A stretch of 64,000 nucleotides of DNA from Perkinsela sp. CCAP 1560/9 (GCA_965644495.1 CBFFSA010000003.1:186001-250000); one strand, 5' to 3'; shown: positions 8,008 through 62,347, counted from the first letter of the stretch. Made by a program: numbers and translations. The notes: a model not told the origin generated them from the sequence alone.

Positions 8008-8472
8008 CTACTTCCGACGTGCCAGCACACCCTGGACCCTCCCATGGCGTCCGGAGGTCTTCGTGTGCTGCCCCCGCACCCTGTGGCCATAGTAATGCCG
8101 AATCCCACGATGCGCGCGGATCTTCTTCAGACGCTCCAAATCCTCTCGGATTTTGTTATCCCAGCTCACCGAGGTGCAGTGCTCGGAGTTCCCCGTGGTA
8201 CGGTCCTTTTTACGGTTCAGCATCCATTCCGGGATGTTAAACTTTTGAGGGGACGCGATCACCTCCGCGATACGCTCCAGCTCTACCGGGGTGAGAGTCC
8301 CGGCCCGACGGTTAGGGTCAATTCCAGCCTTTTTGGTCACCACCAGAGCCATGCGAACCCCAATGCCTTTGACCATACGAAGCGCGTAGGGAATTTTACG
8401 TTTCCCGTCCAAATTGGTGTTGGACATTCGGATAATGTGCGTGAATTCGGGAGGGGCGACAGAGAGGGACAT
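8008..8472 (-). CDS. RPS18: 40S ribosomal protein S18 (uS13)
   Basis: HIIRMSNTNLDG...IPEWMLNRKKD...REDLERLKKIRAHRGIRHYYGHRVRGQHTKTSGR; ATG at 8472 gives 154 aa. Confidence 0.97.
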   Translation of the reverse strand: MSLSVAPPEFTHIIRMSNTNLDGKRKIPYALRMVKGIGVRMALVVTKKAGIDPNRRAGTLTPVELERIAEVIASPQKFNIPEWMLNRKKDRTTGNSEHCTSVSWDNKIREDLERLKKIRAHRGIRHYYGHRVRGQHTKTSGRHGRVQGVLARRK

Positions 8473-13703: not shown

Positions 13704-15127
13704 GGCGGATTGTCAACACCAACGCACCACTTTTTTTCCCAAAAAATAATTTTCTTGTCATTTCCAGTGGACCACTTTTTCTTAAAAACTGTATTCTCAT
13801 TTCCAATGCACCATCAATTATTTAAAGAAGAATTATTTTATAATATCCTTCGGATCTACACTACAAATGCGCCGTTATTCAAGACTCAGTCATTACGATC
13901 GTAATCGTATTCAATCACTCTTTACATCTGGCGAGAGTCGGCGAAGCATAGCTCGCATAATTGGCAAAAGTCACAGCACTGTTTGTCGCGAGTTGGCGCG
14001 TAATGCAAGAAGGGGTCAGCGCTATGAGGGGACGAGGGCACAGCGCATTTCGAAAAGACGCCTCTCGTGTAAAAAGGTCAAGCCTCACAAGATACAAGGC
14101 CTTTTGGAAGAGGAAGTCAGCTCTCGACTTCAAAAGAAGCACAGCCCGGAACAGATTGCAAATACGATCCGTAGCTGTCGTACCGCCTCGACTTCTACCA
14201 TATATCGCCATATTCGTCGCAACGCGTCCTTAGGCGGCAAGTTGTACACCCATTTGCGGATCCGGCGAAAGAGGCCATACCGTCGTCGCACCAGACCTGA
14301 TCGCAGCGCGATTCCCAACCGAACGCCACTTGAAAATCGACCAGAAATTGCTAATAAGCGTCGGCGCTACGGCGATTGGGAAGCAGACTTGGTCGAGGGT
14401 CGAGGACATACCGGATATATTCTTACCCTGTGCGAGCGTAAGAGTCGCTTCCTTGTTCTTCGCAAGTTGGAATCTAAGCACGCGAAGGGGGTAAGCAAAC
14501 AAATTGTAGACGGGTTAAAGAATTACAAGGTTCAAACAATCACATACGACAACGGAACAGAATTCTGGCACCATGAAGAAGTAAACAAAAAATTAAAATG
14601 CAAGTCTTTCTTTTGCGCTCCATATCATTCGTGGGAGAAAGGGTCTGTGGAACATGCAAACGGTTTGATCCGACAATTCCATCAGAAAACCGAATCTTTT
14701 GAGAATTTGAACCAAAGTGAATTAAACAAAACAGCATTGGAATTGAACACTCGTCCTCGGAAATTATTAAATTATCGTTCTCCAATGGATTTTGTGAATG
14801 AACTGCGTAAGTAAAAGAAGCTAAGTAAGCAAAGGTACGTGAGAAAGCTTGTAAAGTTAGTCTGTTAGTGTTGGAAATTTAATGACATTAAATTTAAGCA
14901 TTTTGTAAAGGTGAAGAAATTCTTGTCTAATAAAGTTTCTTACTCAGATCTTACACTTGTATTACACTTTCTTTAAATACTCTGGATAAGTTTTTATGTT
15001 GAAAGGAAAAAGGAACGATGTTCAACTATGGTGAGGCGCAGAAAAAAGGAATGACGGTCGACTATGGTGAAAAAAGTGGTGCGCTGGAGTTGACAATGGG
15101 GTGGTGCACTGGAGTTGAACATCCGGG
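13704..15127 (+). mobile_element. Complete IS30-family insertion sequence
   Basis: Left IR ggcggattgtcaacaccaacgcacc; right IR ggtgcactggagttgaacatccggg, plus an inner copy at ~15070-15097; 3-bp TSD GAT at 13701-13703 and 15128-15130. Confidence 0.9.
13867..14814 (+). CDS. IS30-family DD33E transposase, intact
   Basis: HTH SRRSIARIIGKSHSTVCRELARN; SPEQIA; TIYRHI; GDWEADLV; TITYDNGTEF; WEKGSVEHANGLIRQF; LNTRPRKLLNYRSP. Confidence 0.95.
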   Translation: MRRYSRLSHYDRNRIQSLFTSGESRRSIARIIGKSHSTVCRELARNARRGQRYEGTRAQRISKRRLSCKKVKPHKIQGLLEEEVSSRLQKKHSPEQIANTIRSCRTASTSTIYRHIRRNASLGGKLYTHLRIRRKRPYRRRTRPDRSAIPNRTPLENRPEIANKRRRYGDWEADLVEGRGHTGYILTLCERKSRFLVLRKLESKHAKGVSKQIVDGLKNYKVQTITYDNGTEFWHHEEVNKKLKCKSFFCAPYHSWEKGSVEHANGLIRQFHQKTESFENLNQSELNKTALELNTRPRKLLNYRSPMDFVNELRK

Positions 15128-19955: not shown

Positions 19956-20651
19956 TACTATTTTTTCGAAGAAAAAAAAATTCTTTTTCACTCAGTTGTA
20001 TTCCTTATTAATGATTTTCTACTATCAATAGTAAAAAATTTTCTTGTCAAATTTTCCTGAGTTGCATGGTGCAAACTATTTGCTCCTGCTGGAAGGGTAG
20101 ACCCCCAGCCCCTTCGCCTCTTCTCCATCCCGTCTACTTCTCTCCCTCCCCTTCTTTGCCTTCGCCTTCCGTCTCTTCTTCTCTATCTCCATCCTCTTGT
20201 CCCGTCTCCTCCTCTCTCTCCCCTTCTTCACCTTCGCCTTCCGTCTTTCCTCCTTTATGTTCTTTGCCTTCGCCTTCCGTCTCTCCCTCTCTTTCCCCCC
20301 TTGTCCCAGACTCCTCTTCTCTCTCCCCTTCTGCACCCCCTGTCCCAGACCCCTCTTCTCTCTCCCCTTCCTCTCCCCTCCCGTCTCACGCTCCACGCCA
20401 TACGTTGGATGCGTACTGGGCTAAGAGATCACGGAGTATGGAGAGGGAGGTGATCCCAAGGGCTAGTGGGCCCGTAAGTAGTTCAGTATTGGGTTTTGGA
20501 GCGAAAGTATTGTGTGTTCAAGAGGGGATTGTTAGGAGAGGGGGGCATGTTGAAGAACATATAAAACGCAGGATGTATTTTCATACCAGTTTATCAGTCA
20601 AATATTCCTGGTTTTGATTTCCCTTGTTTATCTACCTCTGTAGAAGAGAAA

Positions 20652-22065
20652 ATGAAAAAAAGACAGGAAGATGAAGAAAGCGTTATTGTGGACATAGAGG
20701 CAACAACACAAGTTGCTTCTTCTGAATCAATAATCGCGAGGAAACAATATACTTATAATGAAAAATTAGATAAAGTGAGACGATACATGGCAGCCCCCTG
20801 GGGGCAAAGAGATAAGCTTGTGAAGGCAAGTGGGGTAAAGTACGGAACAACGGCAAGTTGGATGGCAAATTATGAAGATATAAAGAAGGCTGTACAACGA
20901 GGATTTGGCACCCTTACAAAGTTAATGCCACTCGTAAAATACAAGGAGCTTTTTGAACAAGCCTACAAATACTATTGTACCGCACGTGAAATGTTTTCTG
21001 CAGTTCCTATGTATCACATACGATTGTACTGCATGCAAAACAGCGAAGAATTTTCAAAATTAAAAGTAAAAGATCAGTATTTTAGGATCGGGGAATTTGA
21101 AATGCATTACGGGTTATCTGCTAGGCGTCGTACAGGCTTAACCCAACTTTTACCTTCTAATTTTCAAGAGAGACATGAGGCTCATTTTCGAGTTGTAGAA
21201 AATTCTTTAAAAGACGAGTGTTTCCCTGAATTTATTATTCTTTTGGATGAGACGGGTGTTTTATGGAACCCTGCTCCTACAACAACTTTAGCTCCAAAGG
21301 GTTCGAAATGTGTTCCTATTAGAATAAAATACGAGAAAAAACAGTCAACTTGTCTTTTGTGGGTTTCAGAATGTATTAAAAGAAATGAAAAAGGTTACGA
21401 AATATTCAATGCAAAATATGAGAATCCTTATATTATTTTTGAAGGAAAAAAGGAGTGCCAAAGATCTAATTCAGTGGAGAGTAAGGTAAGGAAGGCTGTT
21501 GAACAGAAGCCTACGTACGCAGAGGTTAATCAAACGGGGTTTAAAATTCGTTGAAAAAATTCCCAATTGTTATAACAAGAGGGCGTGGCTTATTATGGAC
21601 AGATTTTCAGCCCACCGCACAGAAACAGTTGAAAACGCAATAAGTAATAAGGGATATAAAATTTTTTATATTCCTCCTGGTTGTACTTCTATTCTGCAAT
21701 TTCAGGATGTTTATGTGAACAAACCATTCAAAGATCGTATTAGAAACTTTTACACCAAGCATTGTATTGAGAAAAATAATAATGTAACGAGAGAGCTTGT
21801 TGTTCAATGGGTAGTGGACGCCCAAGCATCATTAAAATTACAAATGATAGAAAGTGGAATAAAAAAGCTTGTATTAAGAAATTTTGTAGGAGTTGGAGAA
21901 GAAACAAATGTCAACCAAGGGACAGACGCGGATCTTCCGACGGAAGTGCAAGTGGCGCTTTTAGAAGATGAGCCGCAGGATCTGTCCTTGGTTGCCGTTG
22001 CAATATCTTTTGCCGAGGCAGTCCAGCCTGAAGAACATGGCTATGAAAATATAGAAAGTGATTAG
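20652..22065 (+). pseudogene. pogo DD35D (DDE_1) transposase with one frameshift near 21530
   Basis: LLDETGV; LIMDRFSAH...IPPGCTSILQFQDVYVNKPFK. Confidence 0.88.
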
Positions 22066-23010: not shown

Positions 23011-24581
23011 CAGGGGTGAAAACTTCCATCTGGGGGGGGGTCTAAAATTTGTAAAATTTGCTCAATTTTGTAAAATAATAGCGCATTGGAGAGCTCTCGC
23101 AGAGTTGTATGTCTTTGGCGTATTCGGAACGCTCGACTTGAAAGATTTAATCTGATGACAAAAAAATAATTTTTTTTCTTGTGAAAATATGGCAATTTTT
23201 TGTTTTTCCCCATTTTATGCCTCAAAAGCGAGTTCGCTCAAGGACTTCCCGTGGTGTTTTGAGCGCACGCTCCTATGCCTCACCAGGGAAGATTAAGGAA
23301 AGTCACAGGATGCTTCTTGTGGCGGACTTTGAGAAAACAGAGTCTTATTCCCGGACTGCCCAAAATTTTGGTGTCCACGAGGGAACTGTGAAACTCTGGG
23401 TGGAAAGATTTAATTGCACTGGCGACGTGGCCAGTCCATCCCCTACGCGTCAACCTAGGGTCACCACCTCTGATCTTATGAAAGTATCTTTAAAGCTTAT
23501 TGATGACGCTTATCGTGACCTTCCTTATGGTATCTCCACTTGGAGCGAGCTCTGGAGAGAGGTAAAGCGACGTGGCTTCACATGTTCAATAACATCCCTA
23601 AGGAACATGTTGAAAAACTCAAAAGAAAAAATTGTGCTCAGAACAGCTTTAAAGACCCTTTTCTTATCTAATAATCATAAGGAGCGCAGAGTGCAATTTG
23701 CCACTGAAGTGCTACAGTGGAGCGACGCTGCGCTGGAAAATATTATTTTCTGCGACGAAAAAAAATTTACGTGCAAAAGATCCACCCGACCCACGTACCT
23801 TTGCCGAAAATCTGACCCCCCCAAAGAACAAACAGGGGAATTAGAACCCTAGCATGGTGGAGAAGGTATTATGGTTTGGATGGGGGTGAGCTTAAAGCAT
23901 GGGTTTCATTTACACGTATTTCCTACCCATGATTCTCAAGGAAACAAAGTAACTGTAAAGGGACAAAATTTTTATGAAGCCATGAAAAAAAAGGGGGGTC
24001 TGTTCCAATATTTAAGGAGACATCGGGCCACAATAGTGATGGACAATTGCCCGGCACATAATAAGGCTCGTGCCGCGGCCCAAGAAAAGGGTTATTCTTG
24101 GCTCCGATGGCCAGCACGATCCCCTGATCTAAACCCCATAGAAAATCTTTGGTCAATAATGGACGGGACAAAGGACCGAATTCAACCCAAAAATCAACAA
24201 CAATTACTCTCCGCAATTCATGATTCCTATGATAAACTTAAGACAGAACAAATATCCAAATTTGAGAATACGCTAAAAAGCTTCAGAAAGCGTTGTAGAA
24301 TCATTGTAGAAAAGAACGGTGCACATTGCGGATACTAACAGGGGTTACTAACAATCTTTTTGGGGGGAAAAACGTTATTTTTTAACTTTTTTGTATCATT
24401 TTTCAAGTGACAATTCGAGTTTTTGACCTATTCGGCATTTGTAGTTCCACTTTGATATGTTAAAAGCTACCAGTACGAAGACATACAACTCTGCGAGAGC
24501 TCTCGAATGCGCTATTATCTTACAAAATTGAAAAGTTTTTACAAATTTTAGACCCCCCCCAGATGGAAGTTTTCACCCCTG
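23011..24581 (+). mobile_element. Full-length Tc1/IS630-like transposon; transposase 23217-24338 has one in-frame TAG (23850-23852)
   Basis: ~110-bp TIRs caggggtgaaaacttccatct; TA TSD; IIFCDEKKF, IVMDNCPAH, WPARSPDLNPIENLW. Confidence 0.92.
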
Positions 24582-25105
24582 TATGTATGAAAGTCTGCGA
24601 CTTCCCGTCTCATCAGAAATGCTTTTGCAGGCACGTCCCAAAGTTCTCCACGAAATGCACGCACTTACCGCTAGACTGGCGGACGAATTATGGAAAATTT
24701 TGTGCTCCGACATTGACACGTATTCCTATGTTGGATTGGCCGTAGACACGGGTATTGACCGTGTAAAAGCTGAGCACATAATGATCGTAGTGCTTTACGT
24801 GGAACGTCACGAGTATATTCTCCCTCCTATCTATTCCACCAGACACAAGGCGTATGATGGCTATGCCATGGCCAAAGAGCTTATGGACTGTTTGTCAAGT
24901 AACTTGGGGGAAGAACGACTTCTCAAGCTCGAAATTTTAATGGTGGAAGGTTCTACGGTAAATCACGTTGCCCGTGTTCATTGTGAGGGATTCCTAAAGA
25001 CAATCTACGATCGCATATCTCTTGTTGGTGACAATGATCTGGAAAACATAGAACTTGGTGTCAATCGGTTGTGTCGGGTCTCACTTTTGTCTTGCGTAGG
25101 TCATA

Positions 25106-25260
25106 CAGTGGTTTCAGTTGATCTTGCCCCCCCTCGGAATTTTGATTTTGATTTATCCGTTTTTGCTCATCTTTGCAGCATTGGAGAGATCTCGTTCCCC
25201 TAGCGAAGAGCTTTGCCGCCTTTTTTTCATAGAGACCCCCTGGTGCCCCCTGGGTGACCC
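25106..25260 (+). mobile_element. Transposon terminal fragment (second copy at ~41492-41645)
   Basis: TA|cagtggtttcagttgatcttgcccccc... occurs twice with high identity. Confidence 0.7.
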
Positions 25261-25460
25261 GAAAGTTGACCAAAATGAAACCCAGCCCAGCGACCCCCAC
25301 CCGCTCAAACACCCCCTCCCCCCTTCACCCACCCTCCCGAACCAAATCTCTGTTACTGGGGGTCAGCCCAAAAATGGTCAAATCTCTGTTACTGGGGGGG
25401 GGTCTATTACTGGGGGGGTATACGGTAGTACCGTCTCTTCATAGTAAAATTTACATACCA

Positions 25461-25711
25461 AGCGGCACATTGACAATACATAAGGCACATTGATAATGCA
25501 TAAGGTGTATTGATAATGCATAAGGCACATTGATATTGCATAAGGCACATTGATATTGCAAGAAATTGGGCACTTTTGTATTGCATAGTAAGCGGCACAT
25601 TGATAATGCATAAGGCATATTGATAATGCATAAGGCATATTGATAATGCATAAGGCATATTGATAAGGCATAAGGCATATTGATATTGCATGAGGCACAT
25701 TGATAATGCAT
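25461..25711 (+). repeat. 20-bp tandem array (aaggcacattgataatgcat)n upstream of an IS30-like ORF
   Basis: About 11 units; related units at 36291-36380 (inverted), 37349-37386, 40795-40930, 41355-41490 (inverted, divergent) and 43997-44040 (inverted). Confidence 0.92.
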
Positions 25712-25751
25712 AATCGATTTTTTTCTAATTTCCACTTTTTTTTGTCGGGCA

Positions 25752-26443
25752 ATGTCGAACTTCAATAAAGTGAAAACGCGTCTTGATTCGGATGATCGAG
25801 CGATGATAGAACTGTTGCATAACCAACAAGAGTTTTCTCAAGAGGAGATAGCGGAGAAGGTAAAAGCCTCTCAATCTACAATCAGCCGGGAGTTTGCCCG
25901 GGGCACCTTCAAAGACGTTTATCACGCGAAGCGCGCCCATCTTGCGTGCAGTAAAGCGATGTCAAAGCGCAAGGGAAAGGCTTACAAAATCGAAGGTGAC
26001 GTGGAGGAAAAGGTGATCCGTCTATTGGAACGACGATTTAGCTCGCGGCAGATCAGCGTGGTCTTACGTAAAGAAGATGACGTTAAGGTGTCGCGTGTCG
26101 CAGTGTACGGTTTTATCAGGCGTGATGAATCCCTCGGGGGAACACTGTATAAGTGCCTGCGTCGAGGCGGTGGTCGAGGCCGTCGCCTGCGCGGCAAAAG
26201 CCGTTTTAAGATCCCGAATCGCACAGACATTAGCGAAAGGCCCAATGTTATCAACACGCGGGGAAGATTTGGTGACTGGGAGTGCGGCCTAATAGAGGGG
26301 TCAACGCACAGTGGGTTCTTCCTAAGTTTGCTGGAACGGAAAAGCAGGTTTGGTACACTAAAGCTACTGCGCACGAAGAAGAATGAGGTCGTTGCAGAGG
26401 CTATTGGTAGCGCCCTGGAACACTATCTTGTTCATACGATTAC
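25752..26443 (+). pseudogene. IS30-family transposase truncated at HTIT, just before the second catalytic Asp
   Basis: SQEEIAEKVKASQSTISRE; ISERPNVINTRGRFGDWECGLIEG; LLERKSRF; an insertion follows. Confidence 0.88.
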
Positions 26444-26611
26444 GGGCTTGAGGGCACGTTCGTTGAATCTTCAACGAACTGAGCGCCCGTTCGTTGAACA
26501 TTCAACGAACGTGTCCCCTGGGGGTGCAATTTTGTTTTCCCACAAAAAAAATTTATTTCCCCAAAAAATATATTTCCCCTCCCACAGGAATGGCTGCGAC
26601 ACCTAGTTTAG

Positions 26612-26805
26612 GGGTCTAGAGGTCCAACTGTGAGGGAAGCCCACGTCTGCGAGCAAGGCCCAACTGTGAGCGAAGCCCACGTCTGCGAGCAAGGCCCAAC
26701 TGTGAGCGTAGCCCTGGGATATAATTATTTTTTTCTGGGGACCCGCGCGCTCCAGCGCGCGGGTCGCGCACTGAGAACCTGTGTCTGCCACTTCCTCAGG
26801 ATTGA
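26612..26805 (+). repeat. Merlin-associated GC-rich terminal module (34-bp direct repeats plus hairpin)
   Basis: ggcccaactgtgagcg units; inverted homologues at ~37108-37340 and ~44325-44476. Confidence 0.8.
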
Positions 26806-26823
26806 CCAGAGGCAATAATTACT

Positions 26824-28130
26824 ATGAATGATCTTGCTTCCTTAAGGCATTTTTTTCTACGTTCGCCTTTTATGGATCCTGGGGACGAGGATTTGTTTTC
26901 TCAGGGTGCAGAAAGGTTGTTTGCGCGGTTTCTTGCGGCCTTCGAATACACTGCACAACGGCGGGATGATGATCGGCAGGGTGATAATCAACGTGATGGG
27001 ACTCAGCCAGACCTCGTTGAAACTAATGGTACATCACGCCGTACGTGGCGAAATCTTGAGGTTCGGCCGGTTTGTAGGGGGTGTCCGGGATACGCCTGCG
27101 TGAGGCTATGGCGAAGCGTTGCCGCTATTCCTCAGGGGAATGATGCGGAGAAGTGGATGAAGTGCCATGGTCTGTTTGCCCTCCCCGAATGCCCCGATCA
27201 TGGGAACCAGTTCATGGTTGACATCCCGGGTAACGATCTGATGTGGCTTTGTGTGCACCGTGAACCTGGTGATCGGAATTCTTGCCGAGCGCACGTTATT
27301 TCTTCCATACGTATATTTCTTTCCATACGTATATTTCTACGCACACTTTGCTGACTCCGAGCATGCTTCTCTTGGTGTGGGCCGATATTGCTAACCATTT
27401 ATGCACTGGACAGATTTGCGGGAACCGTGGTATCGGAAGAAAGGTTGTAGAGGACACCTTGCGTAACCTCGGGGAGGCTGCGCTTGGTCAAGAACGCAAA
27501 TTTGGTCACTCTTTTTCGCGAATCCAAGTGGACGAGACGTTCATTGGTAAGCGGAAATAAACCGTAATTTATAACCGAGGTCGTCGACAACGTCAGCGGG
27601 GTTGGTGGTTCGCAACACTAACTGAGCAGGAGGGTCGGAAAATGGGTCTTACCCATTGGAAGCTGGTAAAGCGTCGTGACCTGGAAACTCTGCATTCCTT
27701 CATTCTCCCGCATCTGGCCAGGGCGCGGACTGTTGTGGTCAGCGATTGTTGGAAAGGGTACGTCAACCTCGGTGAGTATTGCCGGCACTACGCGGTGAAC
27801 CACAGTAAGGAGTTCGTGACCTATCAAAGGTTTGTACCTATCAAGTAGTTCGTGACCTATCACACCAACCACGCGGAGGGCGTCCACGGTACCATAAAGG
27901 GTTGGGTTAAGCGTCAACACTACAATTACGGGGCCACCCCTTTGCAACTCCAGCGGAATGTTGCGCTTCAGTGCGTGAAGCCTGGTGCTACTCACATGGG
28001 TAGAGAGCAAGCTTGGCAATGTCGGATGCAGAATCTTTTGAACTGCTGCACTACGGGGCTGAAAATCCTGAATGGGAGGAAGTCAGCGAGAGTTCGTGTA
28101 GCGACAGCGACGTTAGTGGAGATTCTGACG
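26824..28130 (+). pseudogene. Merlin (IS1595/ISXO2-like) transposase, frameshifted
   Basis: Zn-ribbon CPDHG; IQVDETFIGKRK..NRGR; VVSDCWKGY; HYAVNHSKEFV; HTNHAEG. Confidence 0.88.
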
Positions 28131-28241
28131 ACAGTTTATAATTCAATAAATTTTGTTTTTTTATACATAGTGCTTTACATATTTTGCTGGGACTCAGGGC
28201 TCAACCTGACTGGTTAAAAAAGCAACAAAAAAAACGATAAA

Positions 28242-28264
28242 GATACAGTTTCTGTACTTTGTTG
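28242..28264 (+). other. Spliced-leader (mini-exon) 3' relic
   Basis: gatacagtttctgtactttgttg matches the conserved kinetoplastid SL 3' part (CAGTTTCTGTACTwTATTG); not followed by a GT donor. Confidence 0.75.
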
Positions 28265-31200
28265 ATTTCTTTTTTTAATCTAGTCTTCTCTTGGGGCTCA
28301 GTTCTCCTATGACACAGGTGAAAAATCCTCAGACCCACGTAGGTACGAACGAAGACTCTCATTCATTCCATCAGAATATTGACGTCAGCGAAGGTACTCT
28401 CAGTGAAAGCGCTCTCATCGACGAAGAGCGTTCCCACTGTCCCGGCAGTTGGGACCAATTCGATGGCAACAAGCACCTGATCTCCACTGCGAGCACTTAC
28501 GACGAACAATTTTACACTACCCCGATCCCGAAGAATATTCCCAAGGAATGGATGGAGCGCGTACGCCACATCACACAGGAGAGGGAAACTCCGGACACAG
28601 GACACGCAGAGGCCGAAGATGAGGAAACACAACACTGTGCGGTGAGAAGGCAGAAAATAACGCAAGAAGACGCACTCGCACCCAAGGCCGCCGATAAAAG
28701 CTATACTCAAAGCCGCAGTGAAAGACGCTCTTTCCCGCCAACTGCAAAACACGTCACCATCGAAAGGGGTCACCAAAACGGACTCGCGTCCGTCAAGACG
28801 AACACCTTGGACATACCATTCTTCACCCCGGCACGCTGTAAACAAGACCACCTCCGCGGAAAAAACACAAAGTGGAGAAGAGTATCGGGAATGCCCAGCG
28901 GTGGGATGCTCTTGGCGAAGTCCGCCGCACGGAGGGTCGTGACAAGCATTCTACAATCACGTCGCATGTCGCCACGGTAACTGCGTCCCCGCCACATGGT
29001 GGGATAAAGAAGGTCGATTTCTGTGCAATTTATGCGGGCGTCACTACGATATCAACAAAAGGGAGACTCACCCACAAGCCTGTAAGGGGAGGATAACAAA
29101 AGCCCAAACCTCGCCGCATACGACACACCCGAGCGACGAAAGCCATCCCCCAGGGACCCAAACGCATCACTCCGAACTTCCCTCACTGACCACGTGCAAG
29201 GACGTGCCCCCTCGCTGCCGCCAACTCTGGGGAGAAATCCTTACAAAAGCAGCTAAAAACGCAGTCACCGAGAACTCTACAGCCGCATGGACCCTACTCG
29301 CTATGCTTCCGAAGTGCTTACTACCAGCCCCACACCGAGGAGGTCGCAAGAACCACACAACTTACTCATCATACGTCCAGAAGTGCATGAACCGATGGCT
29401 TGCACAAGACTAAATGTCTCCCTATGGAGACTTTATGTCTCCCTATGGAACGAAGCAGTAGACAACACACAGAAGAAACAATCCGCTGCTTCTACAGCCG
29501 TCCACGACGAGGAGGAAAAAGCCGCTATTCGAGCAGAGTTGCTAGTTCGACGAGGTGAGTACTCTAGGGGTATGGCTGCACTTACCGCGGATTCTATGGC
29601 GCCCGACGACGAAGACACCTTCCGTAAGCTTCAAAGCAAACACCCTTGCCGTCATCCAGACAGTGACATCATCGACTATGCGCCTCCGTCCACAGAGCCT
29701 TTAGTAGTGCAGGAACCCGCGGTAGAAAAAACGATCAAAAGCTTTCACAGGGGTTCCTCGGCAGGAACAATGGGTTTGCGACCCGAGCACTCACAAGCTG
29801 CACTTCTGGCGCGCGTAGACAACACGGTGAAACCTCTTAACGCGCTTACACATCTTGTGAACCACCTGTTAGCCGGGAAAGCACCCCTAGAGGTACAGCC
29901 ATACTTCGTGGGAGCCAGACTTTGCGCCTTGGAAAAGGGTGAAAACGATGTCCGACCTATAGCAGCGGGAGAAACAATACGTCGATTGGTGAGCAAAGCG
30001 GCGTGCAATGCAGTGAAGAGCAAAGCTAGCGAAATATTCAAGGGGTTACAGTTCGGAGTTGCGACGCCGGCAGGAGCTGAACGAATAATTCACACTTGCC
30101 GGCATGCCATGGCAATCCACACAGACAACCCCGACCTGGTACTGTGCAAAGTCGACCTGAGCAACGCCTTCAACAACGTAAGCAGATCAACTTTCTTGAA
30201 ACTCGTAAGCGATCACTTCCCGGAATTGCTTCCATGGGCAATCTGGTGCTATACGACAACCAGTGTTTTGACACCCTATTCTCGGATGAAGGCGTTCAAC
30301 AGGGAGACCCCCTAGGGCCGCTTTTCTTTTCACTGGTCTCTCTGGAGCTTGCGAACGAGATCTATCTCCAGACCGACCTCCACTTGCAATTATGATACCT
30401 GGACGATGGAATTCTCATTGGCAGGGCTGAAGATGTCAGGAACTCGCTGGATACGATTGCGAGGGTGGGTCCGCGTTGGGGGCTTTATTTGAACGTGGCA
30501 AAGTGCGAAATTATCACCCCCCCCCTGCTTCGGCTAACGTTGTGGCCATGTTCCCAGACATACCCGACTCCAAAATAAACGTCTGCAGCAATCTTAGCGT
30601 CCTAGGAAGCCCAATTGGGTCCCCTGAATACTGCGCTGAATACCTGATGACTCATGTTGTTGAGCCGGCGGAAATGGCACTGAAAACAATAACTACGATC
30701 AGGCACCCACAGGTAGCCATGGTGCTAATTCGACAGTGTGCGGGTTTCTGCAAAATGGTGTATGCGTTACGAACCACGCCACCGCAATCACTTATGCACC
30801 TCTGCGAGCGTTTTGATGACTTCCTCATGCACACGGTCGAATCAATGTCCCTTACCTCCTCCCGCACGCTCCCAAATTCAACGCATGAAACGACATGGAG
30901 GTTTCGGGCTAAAATCGGCGACCCTACATGCATCCTCCGCTTACGTCTCTTCCGTAGCTTTCGCAGCGGCGACGGACTCTTGGGATCCTTCTGAAGTCGA
31001 GGGCTTCCTGCTCGCAATTGAAGACGTGAACTCCAAAGTGGGTGTTAACCTCCTCGACTCAACAGGGCACGTACGTTCTATCCCGCGCCACAAGTGTGAA
31101 GAAGTCTCACCCCAGTCCCGTTCTTCCAAAAGGCCTCGTCAGCCTGACATCGATTATTCTTTCGAGTCTACGATTCTCCCTTCCCTTCCACGCGAGCGCG

Positions 31201-32515
31201 CATTGACTTCTCCCGCAGACTTTCTTTCCACTTCAAACCCCCTACACGCAGCGGACTGCGTTGATGCGGAGCCGCCGGACTGGGAAAAGAAGAGCGTCCC
31301 CCGTCAAAAAGACATAAGTTACGCGATCTCCGCCGCGGAGTTTTCTTGTGCGTATGAAAACGCCGACGCGAGGACTCGTACACGCTGGACTTCCCAATGC
31401 GGTAAAGGTGCGAGAAGTTGAGCGTTCGTGACTCCGTCAAAAGACACTGGCCACGCTCTTAACCCAACAGAATTCCGCATCTTATCCCGCTGGTGGTTGG
31501 GTGTGTCGGTCTACGGGGAGGAAGGTACATGTCCCAAGGGGAACTGCACCCTCCCACTGGACAAGGATGGGGATCATGCCCTCACATGCAAGCACGGGGG
31601 CGGTATCCTAAGCCGACACAACTCTTTGGCGGACCAGTTCGCTGATACCTGCAGCAACGCATATTTAGCTCCCCAACGGGAAAAAAGCCTTAGGAATAGG
31701 GGCCCCGGTGGTGCCTTGACTAGACCTGGGGATGTCTTCCTGCCGAGCCTTTTCCTCGGAAAGCCCATGGTGCTTGACTTCGCGGTCACTCACGCCCAGC
31801 AACCTAAATACACGGACACAGTCCGAAATGCTAGCTGGGTGGCCGCGGGGTCCTTCGCCGAGCACTACTCCTCGGATCAGAAAGCCCGACCGCGCCGTGA
31901 AGCTGAAAACGCCGGAAGCGATTTCACAGCGATGGTTGTCGAGAGCTACGGCTCTTGGAGCACCAGCGCCTGAGCAGTACTCCGGAAAGTTGGCGAACGC
32001 AGAGCGAAAGCATCCAACGGCGTTCTGTCCGACGACGCGTCTACGCTCCGACTCATGACGGATATGAACGTCACACTGATGCGTTCCCAAGCACGCATGA
32101 TGATCACGCGTCTGCCGGTAGTGGATTCCCCAGCTCCGTTAATCGAACAATAGCTCGATAAGGGACATGCGACGTGTGCCACAGAGCCGGCACTGGTGCT
32201 GGTTGAGTCGACAGAGTCTATTCTCACACCTAGCTCGCGAGGGCTAGGTACCCCAAGTGAGGTGGTACACGGGTTGTGAATCTCCTCCCCGTCGACCAGC
32301 ATCTTGTTTCGCGACCGTGTCGCTGTCGACACAGGCCCGCGCCTGCCCCCTCCCGTATAACAAGGGAAAGGTTCACAAGTCAGGCCGCGGAGAGGTCGAA
32401 AGACCCGGTCCGGAACGCGCGGATGGATTGGGCGTGGATTGCTTCTTTATATTATTGTTGTTATTATTGTTATTATTAAATAACAATAATTAAATTGTTA
32501 AATTGTTATTATTAA
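28242..32515 (+). mobile_element. Near full-length CRE-clade non-LTR retrotransposon (LsmAD-like domain, zinc fingers, RT, RLE), decayed
   Basis: CPAVGC..HVACRH zinc finger; RPIAAGE, KVDLSNAFN, GVQQGDPLGP, YLDD; CCHC DHALTC, RHN, RPGD, LDFAVT, VESYGSW; (TTA/TTG)n tail; several stops and frameshifts. Confidence 0.9.
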
Positions 32516-32754
32516 ATACTTCTGTGGAAAGAAAAAGAATTGCTAATTTGATTGCTCGTTTTCAATTCATATACCACCGCTAAATCATTCAATTCGCGCG
32601 ACCCCCGCTAAATAGGGGGGGAAGGTGGTAGTTGTGGGGTATGGAGGCCTCTCGCAACTCCGGGGCCTCACCGGGAGCAAAGGTGAGATCCACTTGCCGC
32701 CCCGCCTAAATGCATTTTTCCTTTTTTTCTAAAAACTTTTTTGAAGGGCCTTTC

Positions 32755-35700
32755 ATAGCTGTCATTCGACGTCGAAAATTGCAATTCGACGTCTACGAAT
32801 GCCTTTCGACGTCGAAAAAATGGGTCTTTCGACGTCGAACGAAGGAAAAAAATGTGGGATACTTGTGTTCATGTACAGCACTTGAAAAATTGTTTCGATC
32901 GACGGATTCTTTTCACTACAGCAATTTGCTATGGTATTCGGACGAATAGATGACTACTAGAGAATAAGAAAGTAGCAACGTATGGTTGTCGTCAGGTTGT
33001 TCGTCAGACCGCTAGGGAGTTCTAACCGTGTTAAATGCGTCACCTTTTATTTGAAACATGTTCAGAAACGTAATTAATGAAGTTTAATAAAATAAAGATA
33101 CGGAAAATTATGACTGTACTAGTCATTATCATAGTATAAGCTTATGGCGTTTACTGTTGCTGTATAGGTAAGCACAAAATATCTCGCGTTGCAATAATAC
33201 AAGAAAAATTTAAGTGTGGGGAAAAAGTTTAGCCTTAATGGTCCTGAAGTATGAGACAAAACATGGAAAAATAATTAAACATCCATACATTATAAATAAT
33301 TATACAGTAATACAATATAACAATATTATAATGGGTTATGAATTTATGACGTATCAGAAAAAAAGCAGACTCGCATCAGGAGCCTATTAAGTAATTCGGA
33401 AGCTTGAAAGAAGTTACCCCGAATCCCCATTTCCCGCTGATCCTAACTGTTCCAAATTGTCAAGGTACCCAAGTTTGTCGCAGTTCCCCCGTAACAGCAT
33501 AGAGTTTTGTACTGTTTGAGTGCCCATGGATGATTGACGGGAGTTGTATTTGGTGTTCATAACCGACATCCAAGAATCACATTTCGTCACTAAAGGGGGT
33601 ACCCATAAATAATGTATCGCCGCTTGATGCATACCTGGGTATTTGTAGACTCCAACTGTTTGCCACCAATGCAATTCGCACTTGTGCACTCGCGAATCCC
33701 ATTCGTAGTCGACGCAATTCACATATTCATTCCATTTATTTTCCGTAATTTGAAAAATGGGAGAACCACCTCGAAAAAGGTCGTTAGCACGACTGAAATG
33801 AATTGGTTCGAGACCGGCTTTCCGGGCGCGTAGTGCAATGAAATCCGGTGCAAACCACATGACGTCTTCCCAATATTTCATATTGTGATGAACTGAAAGT
33901 CGATTTATGTGATGCTTGAGGGCACATTCAAAAGCTTCACTGCAGCTTCCCACCCGACTAGCCTTCCGTAATCTTTCTAAAGTTGGCCAAACTCCCGTTA
34001 CTAAAGGGGTACCGTCTAAATCCGAAAATTTTTGTAACGCTTTCTGGATAGGAGCTAGTTCTTCAAGAAAATATTTTGCTGAAGTCGCCAAGTTATCTAC
34101 CCCTTCCCGAGCAATAAGATCCGCACACTTACGTACAGACTGACAAACTCGGGGGTTTTCCAGTTCTTGCTTCAGGAACGCCACAACAGTAGGTAACTGA
34201 GTAGAAAAGAAGGAAATGCTGCCGAACTTATCATGGCACCAGCGAGTAACTCCCCCTAACTTAGGAGCCGTAATGCCGTGTACATCCTTTGCTCTACGAA
34301 CAGCTTCAATTACTTGAGGTCCATACAATGAAAGTTCGTCACGACACCGAGGAATATTTTCATGCTGAGCGTTCAGTTCCGCCAAAATTAGATCAGCTTC
34401 ATCGGGAGCATACTGTTTCAAAATTTGTATGCTGCTACGAAGCTGACACACCAGCTCTGTCTGATATTCATCGTCCATTTTATTGCTAGACAGCCCCCCA
34501 TACCATTGAGTGAAAAATTGTTCCGCTTTGTTAGTTTCTTCGTCGATCCAAGAACGTCTAGGGCCACACCGCGATACCGCCCCTTCTTCGTACAGATCTT
34601 GTCATGTCCATAAAATGTTTGTCTGAAGAGCTTTTTAAGTTCAAAAAGGGGGGTTTCCTGAAAGGGTTTCATCGCATCCATCGCGAGGTTATTGAGAAAA
34701 TGACCAAAGCAAGATAGTAAGGAGACGTGTGGCATCATATCCACGGCCCGGTTTCCGAAGTTTATCCAGTCTGGCTCCCCAATTCTTTGAACGCGATCAT
34801 ATATTCTTTTTAATTCTCCTTCTGCCTCATCACGGGCCACGTGGTTAACGGCACAGCCATCCACCATTAAAAACCTCATTTTTCGTACCAGCGTAATGCC
34901 GAGAATAGAATTCAATGTATTAACCAAACTCTCAGCTGTTTCTTTGCCGTTGAATGCCTTCCGCTTCGGATGATACATGGATGGTAATAGATATTGCTCA
35001 TCTGAAACATACACTACCCCTACTAATACGTGCTCGTTGAGCACGGAATCAACCCCAGCATCCACAGCTACCCCGAAGAAAGGATGAATATCGATTTTTG
35101 AAATCATTTTTTCCCATATTTCGGTGGCCAAGTCCTTCTCCCAATCACGCATGATCCTGTGATTGTTGCCAAGTGCATTGAGAATTTCTTCAGTATTTGC
35201 TCCCTTGGGGCGTAATTCTTCATAGTTACGAAGTAAAGCGTGAGCAGCTTTGCATGACAAGTTCGTCTTTGCCACAAGACAGGGAACGCAGCGACGGACA
35301 AAAACATTTACACTCATTGAATTGTCGTTCGGGGTCAGTGAAAAAAGTTCCGGTTCGTTTGCGATTCTCTGTCCCTCGCGCACTAAACAAGTGTGATTGA
35401 TATGGTGATAGTAATGGTTGTTATGGAGCGAATGACTCCACCACGGACAGTCGCGACATTTTATGTGAGTCCGCTGGCCCATGGTATTCACGTGATGGGG
35501 CCGAGGATATTTCTCGGCGTATTCGCGACACTCTTTGTTTTTCTTCTCCAAATTTTTCGTTCTACCAGTCGGGGTATCCATTGCCAAGCAGCGTTCACGA
35601 AAGAATTTTGTCGAAATACGGGGAAACCGCATTGGGTCCTGTACAAGCTGTTTTCGAACTACTTGCCTTACAGAGCTTGCCTGTTGTGATGGAGAGGACG

Positions 35701-36213
35701 GCATTTCCTCTTCAAGCCTCGCGGTACACTCTCGTCGTACTGAGACAGGAACATAACTCCCTGAAAGAACGTTATCGGAAATTTCAAATCTGCTGTGGGT
35801 GGGACCATCTGCTGCTTCCGTGGAAGCATCTCGCTGCATGGCAGTTCTATTCTTCTTCGCCGAATTGGTTCTCTTGGCACGAACCGAAGTAACTGAAGGA
35901 GTAGTAGATGAAACAGATTCGGAAGAATTTGCTTCAGCTAAAGTTGGCACGATTGCATCTGATGAAAGAGCTGGGGGAGAAGGTATGCGGATAGGAATCA
36001 TGCGCCCCCTTCCTCGAACAGAGGTGTGCATTGTGAAAAAACAAGTAAATTAACACTAAAAAGTAGAAGACTGGTTGCAAATACATTTTTTAAACATTTT
36101 ATAAACATATATTCTGTTGAAAAAAAATTCTTTCAGAAACCATCCAAGCACTCAAAATGTTTCGACCTTTCGACCGTCGAACGACGTCGAATTCGACGTC
36201 GAACGACAGCTAT
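32755..36213 (-). mobile_element. Full-length hAT-like DNA transposon; transposase 36031-33414 with one frameshift near 34450-34500
   Basis: TIRs atagctgtcattcgacgtcgaa / ttcgacgtcgaacgacagctat; TSD GGCCTTTC on both sides (6-bp GCCTTT if the ends are CATAG); BED-like zinc finger, GVAVD, FLMVDG, CFGH and dimerisation-like HWWQ...YPGMHQAAIHYLWVP. Confidence 0.85.
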
Positions 36214-36974
36214 GGCCTTTCTTCAAATTTTTTGAAGGGCTCATTTTTTTTTGAAGGGCTAACTTTTTTTTCGAAGGGCTTGCACAAAATATGCATTATC
36301 AGTGTGCGAGTTTTATGCATTATCAGTGTGCGAGTTTTATGCATTATCAGTGTGCGAGTTTTTATGCATTATCAGTGTGCTAATTGCGGTGGTTGTAAAA
36401 CTACCGCTCTACCCTCGATTATTGAAAAAAAAGTGAACAAAAACAGTGAAAATATAAAGAGGAACACAGTAATATAATAGAAGAAAAAAATATAAAAGGG
36501 GGCTCCGGTGGTCCAAAACTGAAAAAAAAAATTGAAAAAAATGGGGGGTCCAGGGGGGGTCATGGTCGAGCAATTTTTTTCGAAAAAATTAGTTTTCGAA
36601 AAAAAACCGCAGAAAGGGTAGCCGGGGTCTTGGCGCGCATTTTCCACCCCCCTACTCGGGGGTGACCCCCCCGCGTATCCGCAGGACGGGTCCGCGAAGT
36701 TCGGATTTTTTCGGAAAAAAAAATTTGAAAAAAGTTCAACTTGGCGAAAAAAATGGCAAAAAAAATATTTTTCCAAAATCGTTTCCCCTATTGTATTTTG
36801 ATAGTTTGGGACCTACACTAGCTTTCTCCGCAGTTGTTTTCGCAAGGTATCCCTTTTTCGAGCCGTGGTGCGCCCCTCAAAATGACCCATTTTTGATTAA
36901 AAAAGGTGAAAAAGTATTTTTGGGACCCCAAGGGGCCTTTTTATGTCGAAAGAATTGTGTGGTTGGAGGGGAAA

Positions 36975-37075
36975 GGTTACCATAAATCGTATAAGTACCA
37001 TAAATCGTAAGTTACCATAAATTGTATAAGTTACCATAAGTTGTATAAGTTACCACAAATTGTATAAGTTACCTA
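36975..37075 (+). repeat. ~19-bp minisatellite (gttaccataaattgtataa)n
   Basis: About 5-6 degenerate units. Confidence 0.8.
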
Positions 37076-37549: not shown

Positions 37550-37625
37550 ACATAAGTAAAGGAATAATGCATAAGTAAAGGAATAATGCATAAGTAAAGG
37601 AATAATGCATAAGTAAAGGAATAAC
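37550..37625 (+). repeat. 19-bp minisatellite (cataagtaaaggaataatg)n
   Basis: 4 units. Confidence 0.9.
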
Positions 37626-37935
37626 GCTCCGTCGTCTAGCAAGCAAGGTGGGATGTCTCTCTGCAAAGGCCAAAGCCCGCGTTCTGTTCAAAGAACATCA
37701 ATACGGAGTAGCTACGCCCGCAGGAGCAGAGCACGTCATCCACATTTGTCGGCGACTTGTAGCGAACCACGTTGAGGATGATGATTTCGTAATGTGCAAG
37801 GTAGACCTCCGAAACGCCTTCAATAACGTCTTTAGGGATAGTTTTATTGCCTTAACACGATATCATTTCCCAGAGTTGAGCCCATTCGTGGAATGGTGCT
37901 ACTCTGCCCTCAGCAACCTGACCTTCGATGGAGAA
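37626..37935 (+). pseudogene. CRE-like RT fragment (divergent relative of the 28-32-kb element)
   Basis: QYGVATPAGAEHVIH...CKVDLRNAFNNV...HFPELSPFVEWCY. Confidence 0.85.
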
Positions 37936-42000: not shown

Positions 42001-42969
42001 TGCAGCTTTGCATGACAAGTTCGTCTTTGCCACAAGACAGGGAACGCAGCGACGAACAAAAACATTTACACTCATTGAATTGTCGTTCGGGGTCAGTGAA
42101 AAAAGTTCCGGTTCGTTTGCGATTCTCTGTCCCTCGCGCACTAAACAAGTGTGATTGATATGGTGATAGTAATGGTTGTTATGGAGCGAATGACTCCACC
42201 ACGGACAGTCGCGACACTTTATGTGAGTCCGCTGGCCCATGGTATTCACGAGATGGGGCCGAGGATATTTCTCGGCGTATTCGCGACACTCTTTGTTTTT
42301 CTTCTCCAAATCTTTCGTTCTACCAGGCGGGGTATCCATTCCCAAGCAGCGTTCACGAAAGAATTTTGTCGAAATACGGGGAAACCGCATTGGGTCCTGT
42401 ACAAGCTGTTTTCGAACTACTTGCCTTACAGAGCTTGCCTGTTGTGATGGAGAGGACGACATTTCCTCTTCAAGCCTCGCGGTACACTCTCGTCGTACTG
42501 AGACAGGAACATAACTCCCTGACGGAACGTTATCGGAAATTTCAAATCTGCTCTGGGTAGGACCATCTGCTGCTTCCGTGGAAGCATCTCGCTGCATGGC
42601 AGTTCTATTCTTCTTCGCCGAATTGGTTCTCTTGGCACGAACCGAAGTAACTGAAGGAGTAGTAGATGAAACAGATTCGGAAGAATTTGCTTCAGCTAAA
42701 GTTGGCACGATTGCATCTGATGAAAGAGCTGGGGGAGAAGGTATGCGGATAGGAATCATGCGCCCTCTTCCTCGAACAGAGGTGTGCATTGTGAAAAAAG
42801 AAGTAAATTAACACAAAAAAGTAGAAGACTGGTTGCAAATACATTTTTTAAACATTTTATAAACATATATTCTGTTGAAAAAAATTCTTTCAGAAACCAC
42901 ACAAGCACTCAAAATGTTTCGACCTTTCGACCGTCGAACGACGTCGAATTCGACGTCGAATGACAGCTA
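42001..42969 (-). mobile_element. Second copy of the hAT-like element (5' part)
   Basis: Nearly identical to ~35245-36213, including the TIR ttcgacgtcgaatgacagctat. Confidence 0.92.
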
Positions 42970-43907
42970 TGGATATAGTCACACAACACGTATTAGAAGG
43001 GCGCATGGAATGGGAGAAAACTCTTGACTCCGCACACCACCACAGACCCGCTATCCTCGCAGCCGACCGACTTCATGACAAACAGAGCGCCAGAGCATGG
43101 GTCCGCCGATACACCGAAAACGAGCTGATAGCTGAGTATCGTCGCCGCGCTCCCGTCGCAGCTAAATGGTTTAGTGAGGAGACAGATGCTGAGTTAGCTG
43201 AGGATTTTGCGCGAGCTCTGCACAATATACATGGAAAAGATCTCTCTCGGTTTACCTCGATGGTCATGACCAGTTACGCCCCGCCGAGCCTATCTAACTC
43301 ACGTGCATGGGGGAAGGCTGATGGACACGTCATCTGTCCGATCTGTCGTGAAAGGAAGCAAACCTTACGACATGTCCTAACCAGCTGTACAACATCTCTC
43401 TTACAAGGCCGTTATACATACCGACACAATATGATTCTGAAGGTCCTACTAGACACGCTTCGAAGTTGTGGTCACATACGAGCAATGTATTTTGATCTAC
43501 CTGGCAACCCCTCCGAGGAGCACCCACCATCATGGCTAGCAAACTTTAGCACGCTACGACCAGATGGGTGGATTCTCCTAGAAGATGGCTCAGAATACAT
43601 CATTGAACTCACCTCCCCGTGGGAAGAAAATTTTGATCAAGCCCGCGAACGAAAGCGCGCAAAGCACGAGGAGATTTTGCGCTACCGACAGGCAACAAAC
43701 GTACGCACGAGCCTCATAACATTTGAGGTCGGAGCTCGGGGCAAACTTAGCGATAGTACGCTCGATCTTTCCTGGGTATTCCCAAAAGATCATAAACACC
43801 ACGTTCGCAAAATGCGTGAAAACTTTGCCCTTGCTGCACTTCAGGCTTCATTTAGGCTATATACTATGCGACAGAACCCCACCTGGAACCCACCACAAGC
43901 AGCTTAA
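42970..43907 (+). mobile_element. 3' part of a HERO/NeSL-like RLE retrotransposon ORF
   Basis: CPIC..TLRHVLTSC..LLQGRYTYRHN; RPD; IIELTSPWE; FEVGARG; 5' end abuts the hAT TIR. Confidence 0.85.
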
Positions 43908-44699
43908 GTAGGAAAATCTCTTTCGGAACAAGATCCTGATCTTTGCCAGGACTATCCGGAATGAAAATCTCTAGTGTACAACACTATGATAAAATTATGC
44001 ATTATAAATGTGCCGCTTAGTATGCATTATAAATGTGCGGGCGGCCGTTCAAATTGCCCTAAGTAAGCGATGAAGCTTCATCCAAAGTGTACAACTTTCG
44101 ATGAAGCACATTGAAAGTTGTACACTTTCGATGAATCTTCATCGAAGGTGTTTTTGACTTTTTCTTATTTTTTCAAATCTTCACGGAAAGGTTTTTCGCG
44201 GATCCATATAGACATTTTGACTTTTATGGTGCTTCATCGAAGTGTTTTGTGAAGGAATTTCACCGTTTTTTCAGTTTATGTTCATGGAAGCGCTTTTGAC
44301 TGATCCATATACATATTTTGAGCGACAATCCTGCGGAAGGGGTAAACACAGGTTCTCAGTGCGCGACCCGCGCGCTGGAGCGCGCGGGTCGCCGAAAAAT
44401 ATTATTATGTCCCAGGGCTACGCTCACAGTTGGGCCTTGCTCGCAAACGGGGGCTTTTGCCTCCAGATGAGGGCTACAGAAACTGAATCTTTAGCTGGAG
44501 AAAGATTCAATCCTTGTATGCAGTAATTTTCGGAGCCCAAAACTATTTCTTATTTATTTTTTCTTGTTTTTATTTTAGCCAGTCAGATTCAGCTCTGAGT
44601 CCCAGCAAACTATATAGTTCGTTATGTACAAAAAAAGGAAATATTAATTGTCACTGTCGTCGAGACGAAGATCTCGCGCTTTGAAACGGGGGGAAGTCT

Positions 44700-52466: not shown

Positions 52467-52728
52467 CTCCTGGCGCGGTAGAAAGAGGTGGTATAACAGC
52501 TTCCCACTTTCTCACTTTTTTGACCCATGCATTAAGACTTGAAATGGCGATCACATAGATTTGTAACGAAATAAACTAATAAAAAAAATCTTTTTCACTT
52601 GTTTCCTGATGAAGCAAATAATATTTTTTCCTTTAGTTTTGAGCTAACATTTTTTGCTGCGTAATACGTAACGAAATATTTTTTAACAGGATAACACAGA
52701 TACGCTGAAAAGAATCAATGGCCATTTT

Positions 52729-61879: not shown

Positions 61880-62347
61880 ACTCGTCGTGCCTTTAATGAT
61901 GAAGGAGTGAAGATGTTGTGTTGGCCACCCAAATCCCCAGATTTAAACCCAATAGAAAACATTTGGGGAATAATGGACGAGCATATAAACGCGCTTTGTC
62001 CAACGAATCGTGAAGATTTGAGACGAGCGATCGCTTCTGGGGTCGAAAAATTAAAGGGGGAGCAATACGATGTATTTTTGAGAACTTTAAAGAGTGTTCC
62101 AACGCGTGTGAAAATTTTGTTGGAGAAAAAAGGTGGAAATTGTGGATACTAACTTTTTTTTACCAGAAAAAAAACTTGCAGTTGCCCTATTTACGGTATT
62201 CAGGAGAATGCATATACCTGGAAACTACGTAAAACGTAATATCACATGACACGTAACTCTGCGAGAGCTCTCGAATGCGCTATTATTTTGCAAAATTAGC
62301 CGAGTTATAAGAATTTTGACCCCCCGATATTTTCGTGCACCCCTCTG
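61880..62347 (+). mobile_element. Tc1-like 3' end, related to the 23-kb element
   Basis: WPPKSPDLNPIENIW...GGNCGY; right TIR shares aactctgcgagagctctcgaatgcgctatta. Confidence 0.85.

Follow-up and report, generated by a model that had tools for sequence, protein, structure and literature searches.

An Ataxin-2-type LsmAD domain at the N terminus of a family of CRE-like retrotransposons, with a decayed copy in Perkinsela sp.

The CRE-clade retrotransposons CRE1, CRE2, SLACS, and CZAR encode a single ORF with N-terminal zinc-finger-like motifs, a reverse transcriptase (RT), and a restriction-like endonuclease (RLE), and they are associated with the spliced leader (SL), as described in PMC12278014. 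NeSL and Utopia are also RLE-type elements, and the N terminus of their single ORF carries a host-derived domain, a Ulp1-like protease (PMC4640811). The LsmAD domain belongs to the Ataxin-2/PBP1 proteins, which combine SM-ATX, LsmAD, and PAM2. According to the main text of PMC12898128, LsmAD is unique to and defining for the Ataxin-2 family and has no known partners, and neither reverse transcriptase nor transposons are mentioned in that text. Trypanosome PBP1 has been reported to interact with MKT1, LSM12, and PABP, and PBP1, MKT1, and LSM12 raise the expression of tethered reporters (PMC3985637; see also PMC5485521). Here, we analysed 64,000 nucleotides from Perkinsela sp. CCAP 1560/9 (the window), in which a preliminary description had placed an LsmAD domain at the N terminus of a CRE-like retrotransposon.

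The residues quoted in that description lie in a plus-strand ORF at 28279-28980 with a Met at 28309. When the whole 223-aa ORF was compared with Pfam, LsmAD was the sole family match, with 18.6 bits (E = 0.0026), under the curated cut-off of 25. The isolated 83-aa domain (28414-28662) passed this cut-off, matching LsmAD (PF06741) at 26.6 bits (E = 8.4e-6). The true reading of the 28309-28980 ORF ends at about 28660-28700, the frame shifting between 28662 and 28706 relative to the intact protein P0133, so that the final ~90 codons are read in the wrong frame. From the Pfam match, the domain alignment (A1), and column conservation, the LsmAD module was placed at ORF residues 36-114 (28414-28650, plus strand); the conserved part begins before the Pfam model does, ~12 residues ahead of WDQF. 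The intact protein P0011 reached 30.8 bits, and Pfam LsmAD was weak in full-length relatives, five of the six scanned being well under the cut-off; P0133 was under it too, with 21.2 bits, and P0009 gave no match. Among the ESM Atlas features of the ORF, LsmAD clusters ranked first (0.92 and 0.90). A profile built from six element domains (A1) was searched over 1.84 billion proteins and retrieved 925 at E ≤ 0.001, and the matches ranking below the elements were Ataxin-2/PBP1 proteins. In the reciprocal check, 74 of the 77 lowest-ranked listed matches (P0207-P0283) carried Pfam LsmAD at E ≤ 1e-8, many of them together with SM-ATX. Thus, the Pfam search proposed in the preliminary description, where absence of a match was to speak against the domain, gave a match above the cut-off for the isolated domain, and the reciprocal search led back to Ataxin-2/PBP1; the motif at 28414-28650 is confirmed as LsmAD at the level of sequence. 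The predicted structure of the element domain had a pLDDT of 69 and a pTM of 0.26, which means that it is predicted without a stable fold, and neither a fold match to this prediction nor a sequence match to the element-domain profile was found in the PDB.

Judged from its motifs and its relatives, the window copy is a decayed 4.3-kb RLE-type, CRE-like retrotransposon with LsmAD at the start of its protein. When P0133 (1288 aa) was aligned to the window by tblastn, residues 1-1288 were covered in six consecutive pieces with 65-90% identity, colinear from the first Met to the stop (28309 to 32150). The decayed single ORF (28309-32153) reads LsmAD, two zinc fingers, RT, and CCHC/RLE; it follows a T-rich 5' untranslated region of 44 nt (28265-28308), its Met at 28309 being aligned with Met1 of P0133. 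Behind LsmAD lies a low-complexity linker (28651-28891; 16.7% mean identity in seven lineages) that contains the first frame change. Its length varies by lineage, with 40-175 unconserved residues between LsmAD and the fingers, and the first finger begins at residue 121 to 274. The two N-terminal zinc-finger-like motifs, of the C2H2 and C2HC type, were recognised in the translation at 28892-29083 (56% mean identity among lineages). The RT core with its QGDP and YLDD motifs was mapped to 29935-30520 from the Pfam RVT_1 match on P0133 (residues 544-742, E = 3.8e-15), and fragments of the window itself gave weak RVT_1 matches. At 31530-32150, the translation and a motif search in intact relatives gave a CCHC knuckle, an RHN motif, and the restriction-like endonuclease (RPGD...D); these names follow what we take to be established for RLE elements, and no Pfam model matched this region. 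The 3' untranslated region (32154-32516) ends in a TTA/TTG-rich tail (~32446-32516). All of these features are on the plus strand.

Compared with P0133, the window copy has five frame changes (28662-28706, ~29410, ~30272, ~30517, and ~30845) and four internal stops (28940, a TGA in the first finger, 30393, 31419, and 31971). The single frameshift noted earlier holds between LsmAD and the zinc finger, but it leaves out the TGA at 28940 and does not describe the copy as a whole. The break between LsmAD and the fingers and the TGA at 28940 recurred in independent contig assemblies with no differences (record 2 of run X1 and record 7 of run X2). Since three gap letters within 29371-31799 set one contig of the same subfamily apart from the window, some of the downstream breaks may be assembly errors.

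A 32-nt relic of a spliced-leader exon was found by its match to the SL consensus at 28233-28264 (plus strand), and its 5' end is apparently short. A halt of the RT at the methylated cap-4 would fit the missing first bases. Of the last 23 nt of the relic, 22 are identical to the SL consensus 'Euglenozoa 13' (table in PMC3795323). The relic occurs once in the window when up to three mismatches are allowed, and many contigs with differing neighbours converge at it. Contigs with SL in varied contexts at 28233-28281 numbered 139 in X1, 107 in X2, and 444 in X3. In X3, many different sequences follow the SL and there is little of the 3' repeat, as in an RNA library; the kind of library is unrecorded, and hence these contigs are no evidence of expression. 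The relic has a parallel in the scattered SL fragments reported near retrotransposons in Perkinsela (PMC5601477), and the SL exon of the published Perkinsela strain is given as ~60 nt in the supplement of that paper, for which reason the host was not taken to be that strain. Around the window copy, no target-site duplication of at least 7 nt was found, and no second SL was found at its 3' end, the window having one SL match. The 5' flank resembles a repeat at 44540-44661. We infer that the window copy would be a dispersed retrocopy of an SL-bearing RNA; alternatively, it may derive from an insertion in an SL gene that was later copied elsewhere. At the 3' side, contigs of other subfamilies join the window at 32191-32225 and 32280, and the element part from 32283 is common to a very abundant repeat, with a depth in X1 of 25,000-37,000 at 32295-32369 versus ~50 for this copy (depths here and below are relative and not scaled to single-copy depth). 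This repeat (window 32283-32650) may be a non-autonomous derivative or a common target. Rfam gave no match over 27500-33500.

The surroundings of the element contain host genes and many other mobile sequences. The best four PDB matches of RPS18 at 8011-8472 (5t2a, 8a3w, 4v8m, and 5opt), which we take to be from trypanosomatid ribosomes, scored 213-218 bits, and all the others at most 181 bits. Going by RPS18 and the SL exon, the host is kinetoplastid-like. A DExH helicase of 2268 aa, free of introns and with several dsRBD-like repeats, is encoded at 45705-52511 on the minus strand and presumably resembles the kinetoplastid RNA-editing helicase REH2. In this eukaryotic window, two ORFs (13786-14814 and 25707-26606, the second with an HTH_38 match) look like bacterial transposases, presumably of the IS30 family. 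Remains of DNA transposons are dense (26606-28217, 23151-24338, 33414-36049, 20565-22065, and 61439-62152) and include Tc1-like (DDE_3 match), hAT-like (weak Dimer_Tnp_hAT match), and pogo-like ORFs; the fragment just upstream of the element is, we assume from its motif, Merlin/ISXO2-like. Also present are a second RT fragment of the LsmAD-element family (37609-37926, 72% to P0011) and, at 42879-43907, the C-terminal portion of an RLE element distinct from it.

The fusion of LsmAD to the retrotransposon protein is not confined to the window copy. Eight proteins in five clusters at 90% identity (six cluster members, together with P0003 and P0004) carry LsmAD, zinc finger, RT, and RLE in one ORF. 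When the LsmAD profile was compared with 104 RT relatives, six matched at E < 1e-32 and the next match had an E of 2.6; P0009 still matched at 7e-33 when it was held out of the profile. Among 31 further cluster members, 13 matched the LsmAD profile, and six combined LsmAD, finger, QGDP, YLDD, and RPGD within a single ORF (1200-1324 aa). The RT as query found these relatives, and a search with the 223-aa ORF found no longer protein among 692 candidates. Sequencing reads gave a similar picture. Two diverged contigs of X1 span 28389-28658, their depths being 294 and 302 versus 50 for the window sequence, and in X2 diverged contigs over the same stretch have five to twelve times the depth of the window sequence. 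A third diverged contig matches 28443-28478, and two X2 contigs (1175 and 3236 nt) contain the domain plus downstream element sequence. By inspection, P0133 has the changed residue at nine of the ten amino-acid changes listed for the subfamily of depth 294, and thus the database proteins and the runs are probably from the same species; the evidence for the fusion comes entirely from ENA proteins and four runs, with one organism label and one study. Members of different subfamilies sit on contigs of equal size (e.g. 17563, 72739, and 18877), which suggests clustering or a shared target. The preliminary description had proposed to look in other copies for LsmAD, ZnF, RT, and RLE in one ORF and would have been contradicted had this copy alone the domain; the eight proteins, the colinearity of P0133, and two other subfamilies at about six times the depth in X1 show that it is not alone. 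From the sequences of these relatives, the one-ORF architecture is almost certainly genuine.

The LsmAD domain has been conserved, as can be seen by comparison with the freely drifting linker. Mean identity in seven lineages is 50% for LsmAD, 17% for the linker, 56% for the zinc fingers, and 63% for the RT, and within LsmAD it is 61% in the front half, 28% in the central helix, and 49% at the end. Among the variable sites listed for the LsmAD subfamilies, 27 of 48 are third codon positions (binomial p = 0.0009) and no stop occurs, so that the comparison of copies proposed earlier supports purifying selection. Counts of silent and replacement codons, which rest on the listed differences (27 of 46 and 35 of 51), are 13/10 and 16/15, versus 49/197 sites. 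The columns that are invariant in 28 Ataxin-2-type domains in the WDQF..N and YxE.YTT stretch are kept in 15-16 of 16 elements, and the elements retain the W, Q, F, N, E, Y, T, and T that are invariant in Ataxin-2, together with the EE and V of the terminal EE..S.V motif. In most elements, the I-E of the A..IA.EIE stretch is missing or exchanged for other residues, and TPDTG stands where Ataxin-2 has H..EERG. H43, P74, and TPDTG are invariant or nearly so in the 16 elements and not in Ataxin-2. Since the central helix has drifted, the element LsmAD may no longer act as it does in Ataxin-2.

In a quick RT tree of 88 rows (rows with fewer than 300 aligned RT residues were left out, except P0011 and P0133), all seven LsmAD-bearing rows fall into one clade of 19 (SH-aLRT 99). 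Of the other 12 rows in this clade, 11 begin too far downstream to tell, and P0013 has a rearranged N terminus without LsmAD. The sister group includes P0021 and P0025, which have a bifunctional primase/polymerase (Prim-Pol, PF09250; 24.1 and 27.3 bits, above the cut-off) at the N terminus in the position of LsmAD. The N-terminal slot of related RLE elements thus appears to swap accessory domains. A PHD finger and an AAA domain were seen in P0038.

Domain trees were built from 60 and 62 domains at the top of 150 listed matches, and with 96 columns they are modest evidence. The element LsmADs form one group (97/85 in the first tree; 99/99 in the second, with the long-branch P0163 inside) that adjoins P0159 and the Lsm-less P0157, L001, and L002, apart from 38 other domains (99/89; 100/99). 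P0159 is an Lsm+LsmAD protein, with Pfam SM-ATX and LsmAD and a predicted Sm fold, and it has the element-type upstream signature E..H..GSWDQF. The trees contain no named kinetoplastid PBP1 and P0159 is not tied to the organism of the window; neither longer relatives of P0159 nor a named kinetoplastid PBP1 were found among 1358 candidates. In P0157, the same LsmAD subtype lies at the C terminus without Lsm. The metagenome ORFs L001:1293-1571 and L002:2112-2390 carry it near the N terminus, also without Lsm, and their contigs end before the RT region. LsmAD is pan-eukaryotic and confined, among the elements, to one RT clade and one tentative second lineage, and thus transfer from host to element is the simplest direction. 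The domain was very probably captured from a host LsmAD protein. Because an Lsm+LsmAD protein is among the nearest non-element relatives, a single capture from a host Ataxin-2/PBP1 gene is likely, which is how the outcome of the tree proposed in the preliminary description may be read; since the Lsm-less proteins are of the same subtype, a protein of this kind may instead have been the donor.

A second group with an element-type LsmAD at the N terminus and other sequence downstream comprises P0150, P0151, P0153, P0167, and P0160. P0151 runs into an RT fragment with 31% identity to P0099 and no match to the main clade, and these proteins may represent a second lineage, tentatively, since this depends on one ORF that may itself be a rearranged copy. 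At 68 loci in JGI metagenomes, mostly ordinary PBP1 genes, tblastn gave no match outside the domain to P0133, P0099, or P0030, and none of the 29 pattern matches in viral contigs was confirmed.

The elements kept LsmAD without Lsm through divergence to ~63% RT identity, and therefore the domain would have a function by itself on which selection can act. Since it is conserved, unfolded, and placed at the tip of a long linker, a role in docking is the reading that we prefer. We favour the explanation, with a probability of roughly 0.58, that LsmAD was captured once and kept as a docking module that ties the element particle to host PBP1-type mRNA regulation. The element LsmAD is predicted to fold on binding a host protein, and the first candidate partner would be the Lsm domain of host PBP1, bound in trans. 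PBP1 with its partners PABP, MKT1, and LSM12 would then be brought to the element RNA, which could favour the stability or translation of this RNA in a host that controls its genes almost only after transcription. In Ataxin-2, LsmAD is reported to be flexible and poorly folded alone and to bind no RNA, and it orders its own LSm and raises RNA affinity in cis (PMC11898529). Deletion of LsmAD had modest or partial effects in fly and human assays (PMC7946432, PMC11166328, and PMC12827272). Because the element has neither an Lsm domain nor a Pfam PAM2 match, any link to the PBP1 machinery would be indirect. The full form of this scheme, in which a captured LsmAD mimic docks in trans on the Lsm domain of host PBP1, hijacks the PBP1-MKT1-LSM12-PABP activator for element RNA, and has reached two or more distant RT lineages of the same host (P0150/P0151 type), is a tentative proposal with the odds against it. 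When the element domain was modelled as a complex with the P0159 Lsm region, without the use of alignments, the score was 0.00, which speaks neither for nor against such docking.

Other explanations account for some of these observations. An origin by a one-off template switch onto PBP1 mRNA, from an adjacent host gene fragment, or by a chance motif could be suggested because LsmAD is out of frame with the rest in the window copy; it is refuted by the intact one-ORF fusions in relatives, which occur in five clusters, and also has against it the other subfamilies in the reads, the third-position bias, and the Pfam score above the cut-off, and we give it next to no weight. The same capture might serve the element internally, through self-association of the RT protein or folding on the zinc-finger/RT region with no host partner. 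Pbp1 can multimerise (PMC3985637, with no region given), and the near-invariant, element-specific H43, P74, and TPDTG would fit a new role. However, the residues that are kept are exactly the Ataxin-2 invariants, and 40-175 unconserved residues part the domain from the fingers, making an internal role unlikely. LsmAD could also be a decoy that occupies a host partner of the PBP1 LsmAD and so blocks repression, decay, or granule sequestration of element RNA. The lack of an Lsm domain and of a Pfam PAM2 match would be a typical dominant-negative make-up, but from the general biology of non-LTR elements a low-abundance, cis-acting RT fusion would be expected to titrate little, and we consider a decoy slightly less likely still. 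The preliminary description had itself suggested that LsmAD recruits MKT1, LSM12, or DHH1 or routes the particle to granules. This draws on the PBP1 interactions with MKT1, LSM12, and PABP and the tethered reporters (PMC3985637), and on the binding of DDX6 by the LSm/LSmAD region (cited in PMC12898128). The mapped contacts, which come from human, fly, and yeast and not from kinetoplastids, speak against it, since LSM12 requires only the LSm domain and granule entry requires PAM2 (PMC11166328), and Mkt1 binds Pbp1 at residues 491-549 (PMC12345631). Direct recruitment of MKT1 or LSM12 by LsmAD is thus improbable, and DDX6/DHH1 may still be a partner.

The docking module that we favour would bear on Ataxin-2 biology as well. 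The partner of LsmAD is an open question in a family linked to neurodegeneration, and the elements make it directly testable; with the front motif kept and the helix eroded, they mark the residues that matter. If docking in trans were true, this would be the first selfish element shown with an Ataxin-2 domain, and it would reveal the binding target of LsmAD. The LsmAD-retrotransposon architecture is real and family-wide on the sequences analysed, and it is probably undescribed: the preliminary description knew of no such non-LTR element, and in the library of papers searched none was found that describes a mobile element with LsmAD.

The elements resemble Ataxin-2/PBP1 in their LsmAD, which has W, Q, F, N, E, Y, T, and T as invariant residues and ends in EE..S.V. 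They differ in having no Lsm domain, no RELxxW-like upstream motif, and no Pfam PAM2 match; in addition, their central helix is shorter, H..EERG is replaced by TPDTG, and the domain is fused to a retrotransposon protein. No SM-ATX match was found with Pfam in the element proteins, where LsmAD begins 3-34 residues after the first Met of intact proteins, and no PAM2 match either, although short divergent motifs could escape this search. Some host proteins of diplonemids are similar in part. P0148 (Diplonema papillatum), P0154, P0156, P0161, and P0162 form a diplonemid family, three of them named Diplonema or Flectonema, with two LsmAD domains, weak PDZ and RRM matches, and no Pfam SM-ATX match. 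P0148, P0154, and P0161 thus share with the elements a euglenozoan LsmAD without SM-ATX in Pfam, but they are host proteins and have no RT. The diplonemid LsmADs are a clade of their own (100/98-99), and their grouping with the elements was weakly rejected (p-AU = 0.046).

In their retrotransposon part, the elements are RLE-type, because the RT is followed by a CCHC knuckle and a PD..D endonuclease in one ORF, with QGDP, YLDD, and RPGD in order. Their single ORF and N-terminal zinc-finger-like motifs agree with the definition of CRE elements (PMC12278014), and with CRE1, CRE2, SLACS, and CZAR they also share the RLE and the association with SL. Among named proteins, the best RT match (40% identity) is one from Diplonema papillatum with the label 'SLACS 132 kDa protein'. 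'CRE-like' is used here by description, since the relatives in the RT tree include P0030, which its source calls SLACS-like, and no curated CRE1, SLACS, or CZAR reference. Unlike SLACS, CZAR, and CRE1, which are inserted in the SL RNA gene with a target-site duplication and end in poly(A), the window copy lies outside an SL gene, has SL only at its 5' end with no duplicated SL at the 3' end, and has a TTA/TTG tail and no poly(A). The N-terminal LsmAD is a further difference from the CRE-clade elements; the main text of PMC12278014 contains none of the terms Lsm, ataxin, and PBP1. NeSL and Utopia are likewise RLE-type with a host-derived domain at the start of a single ORF, but they belong to another clade and their domain is an enzyme, whereas here the captured part comes from an mRNA regulator, is poorly folded, and is no enzyme. 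The LsmAD elements would thus represent a new kind of host-domain capture for RLE-type elements, in a group of organisms that regulates its genes after transcription.
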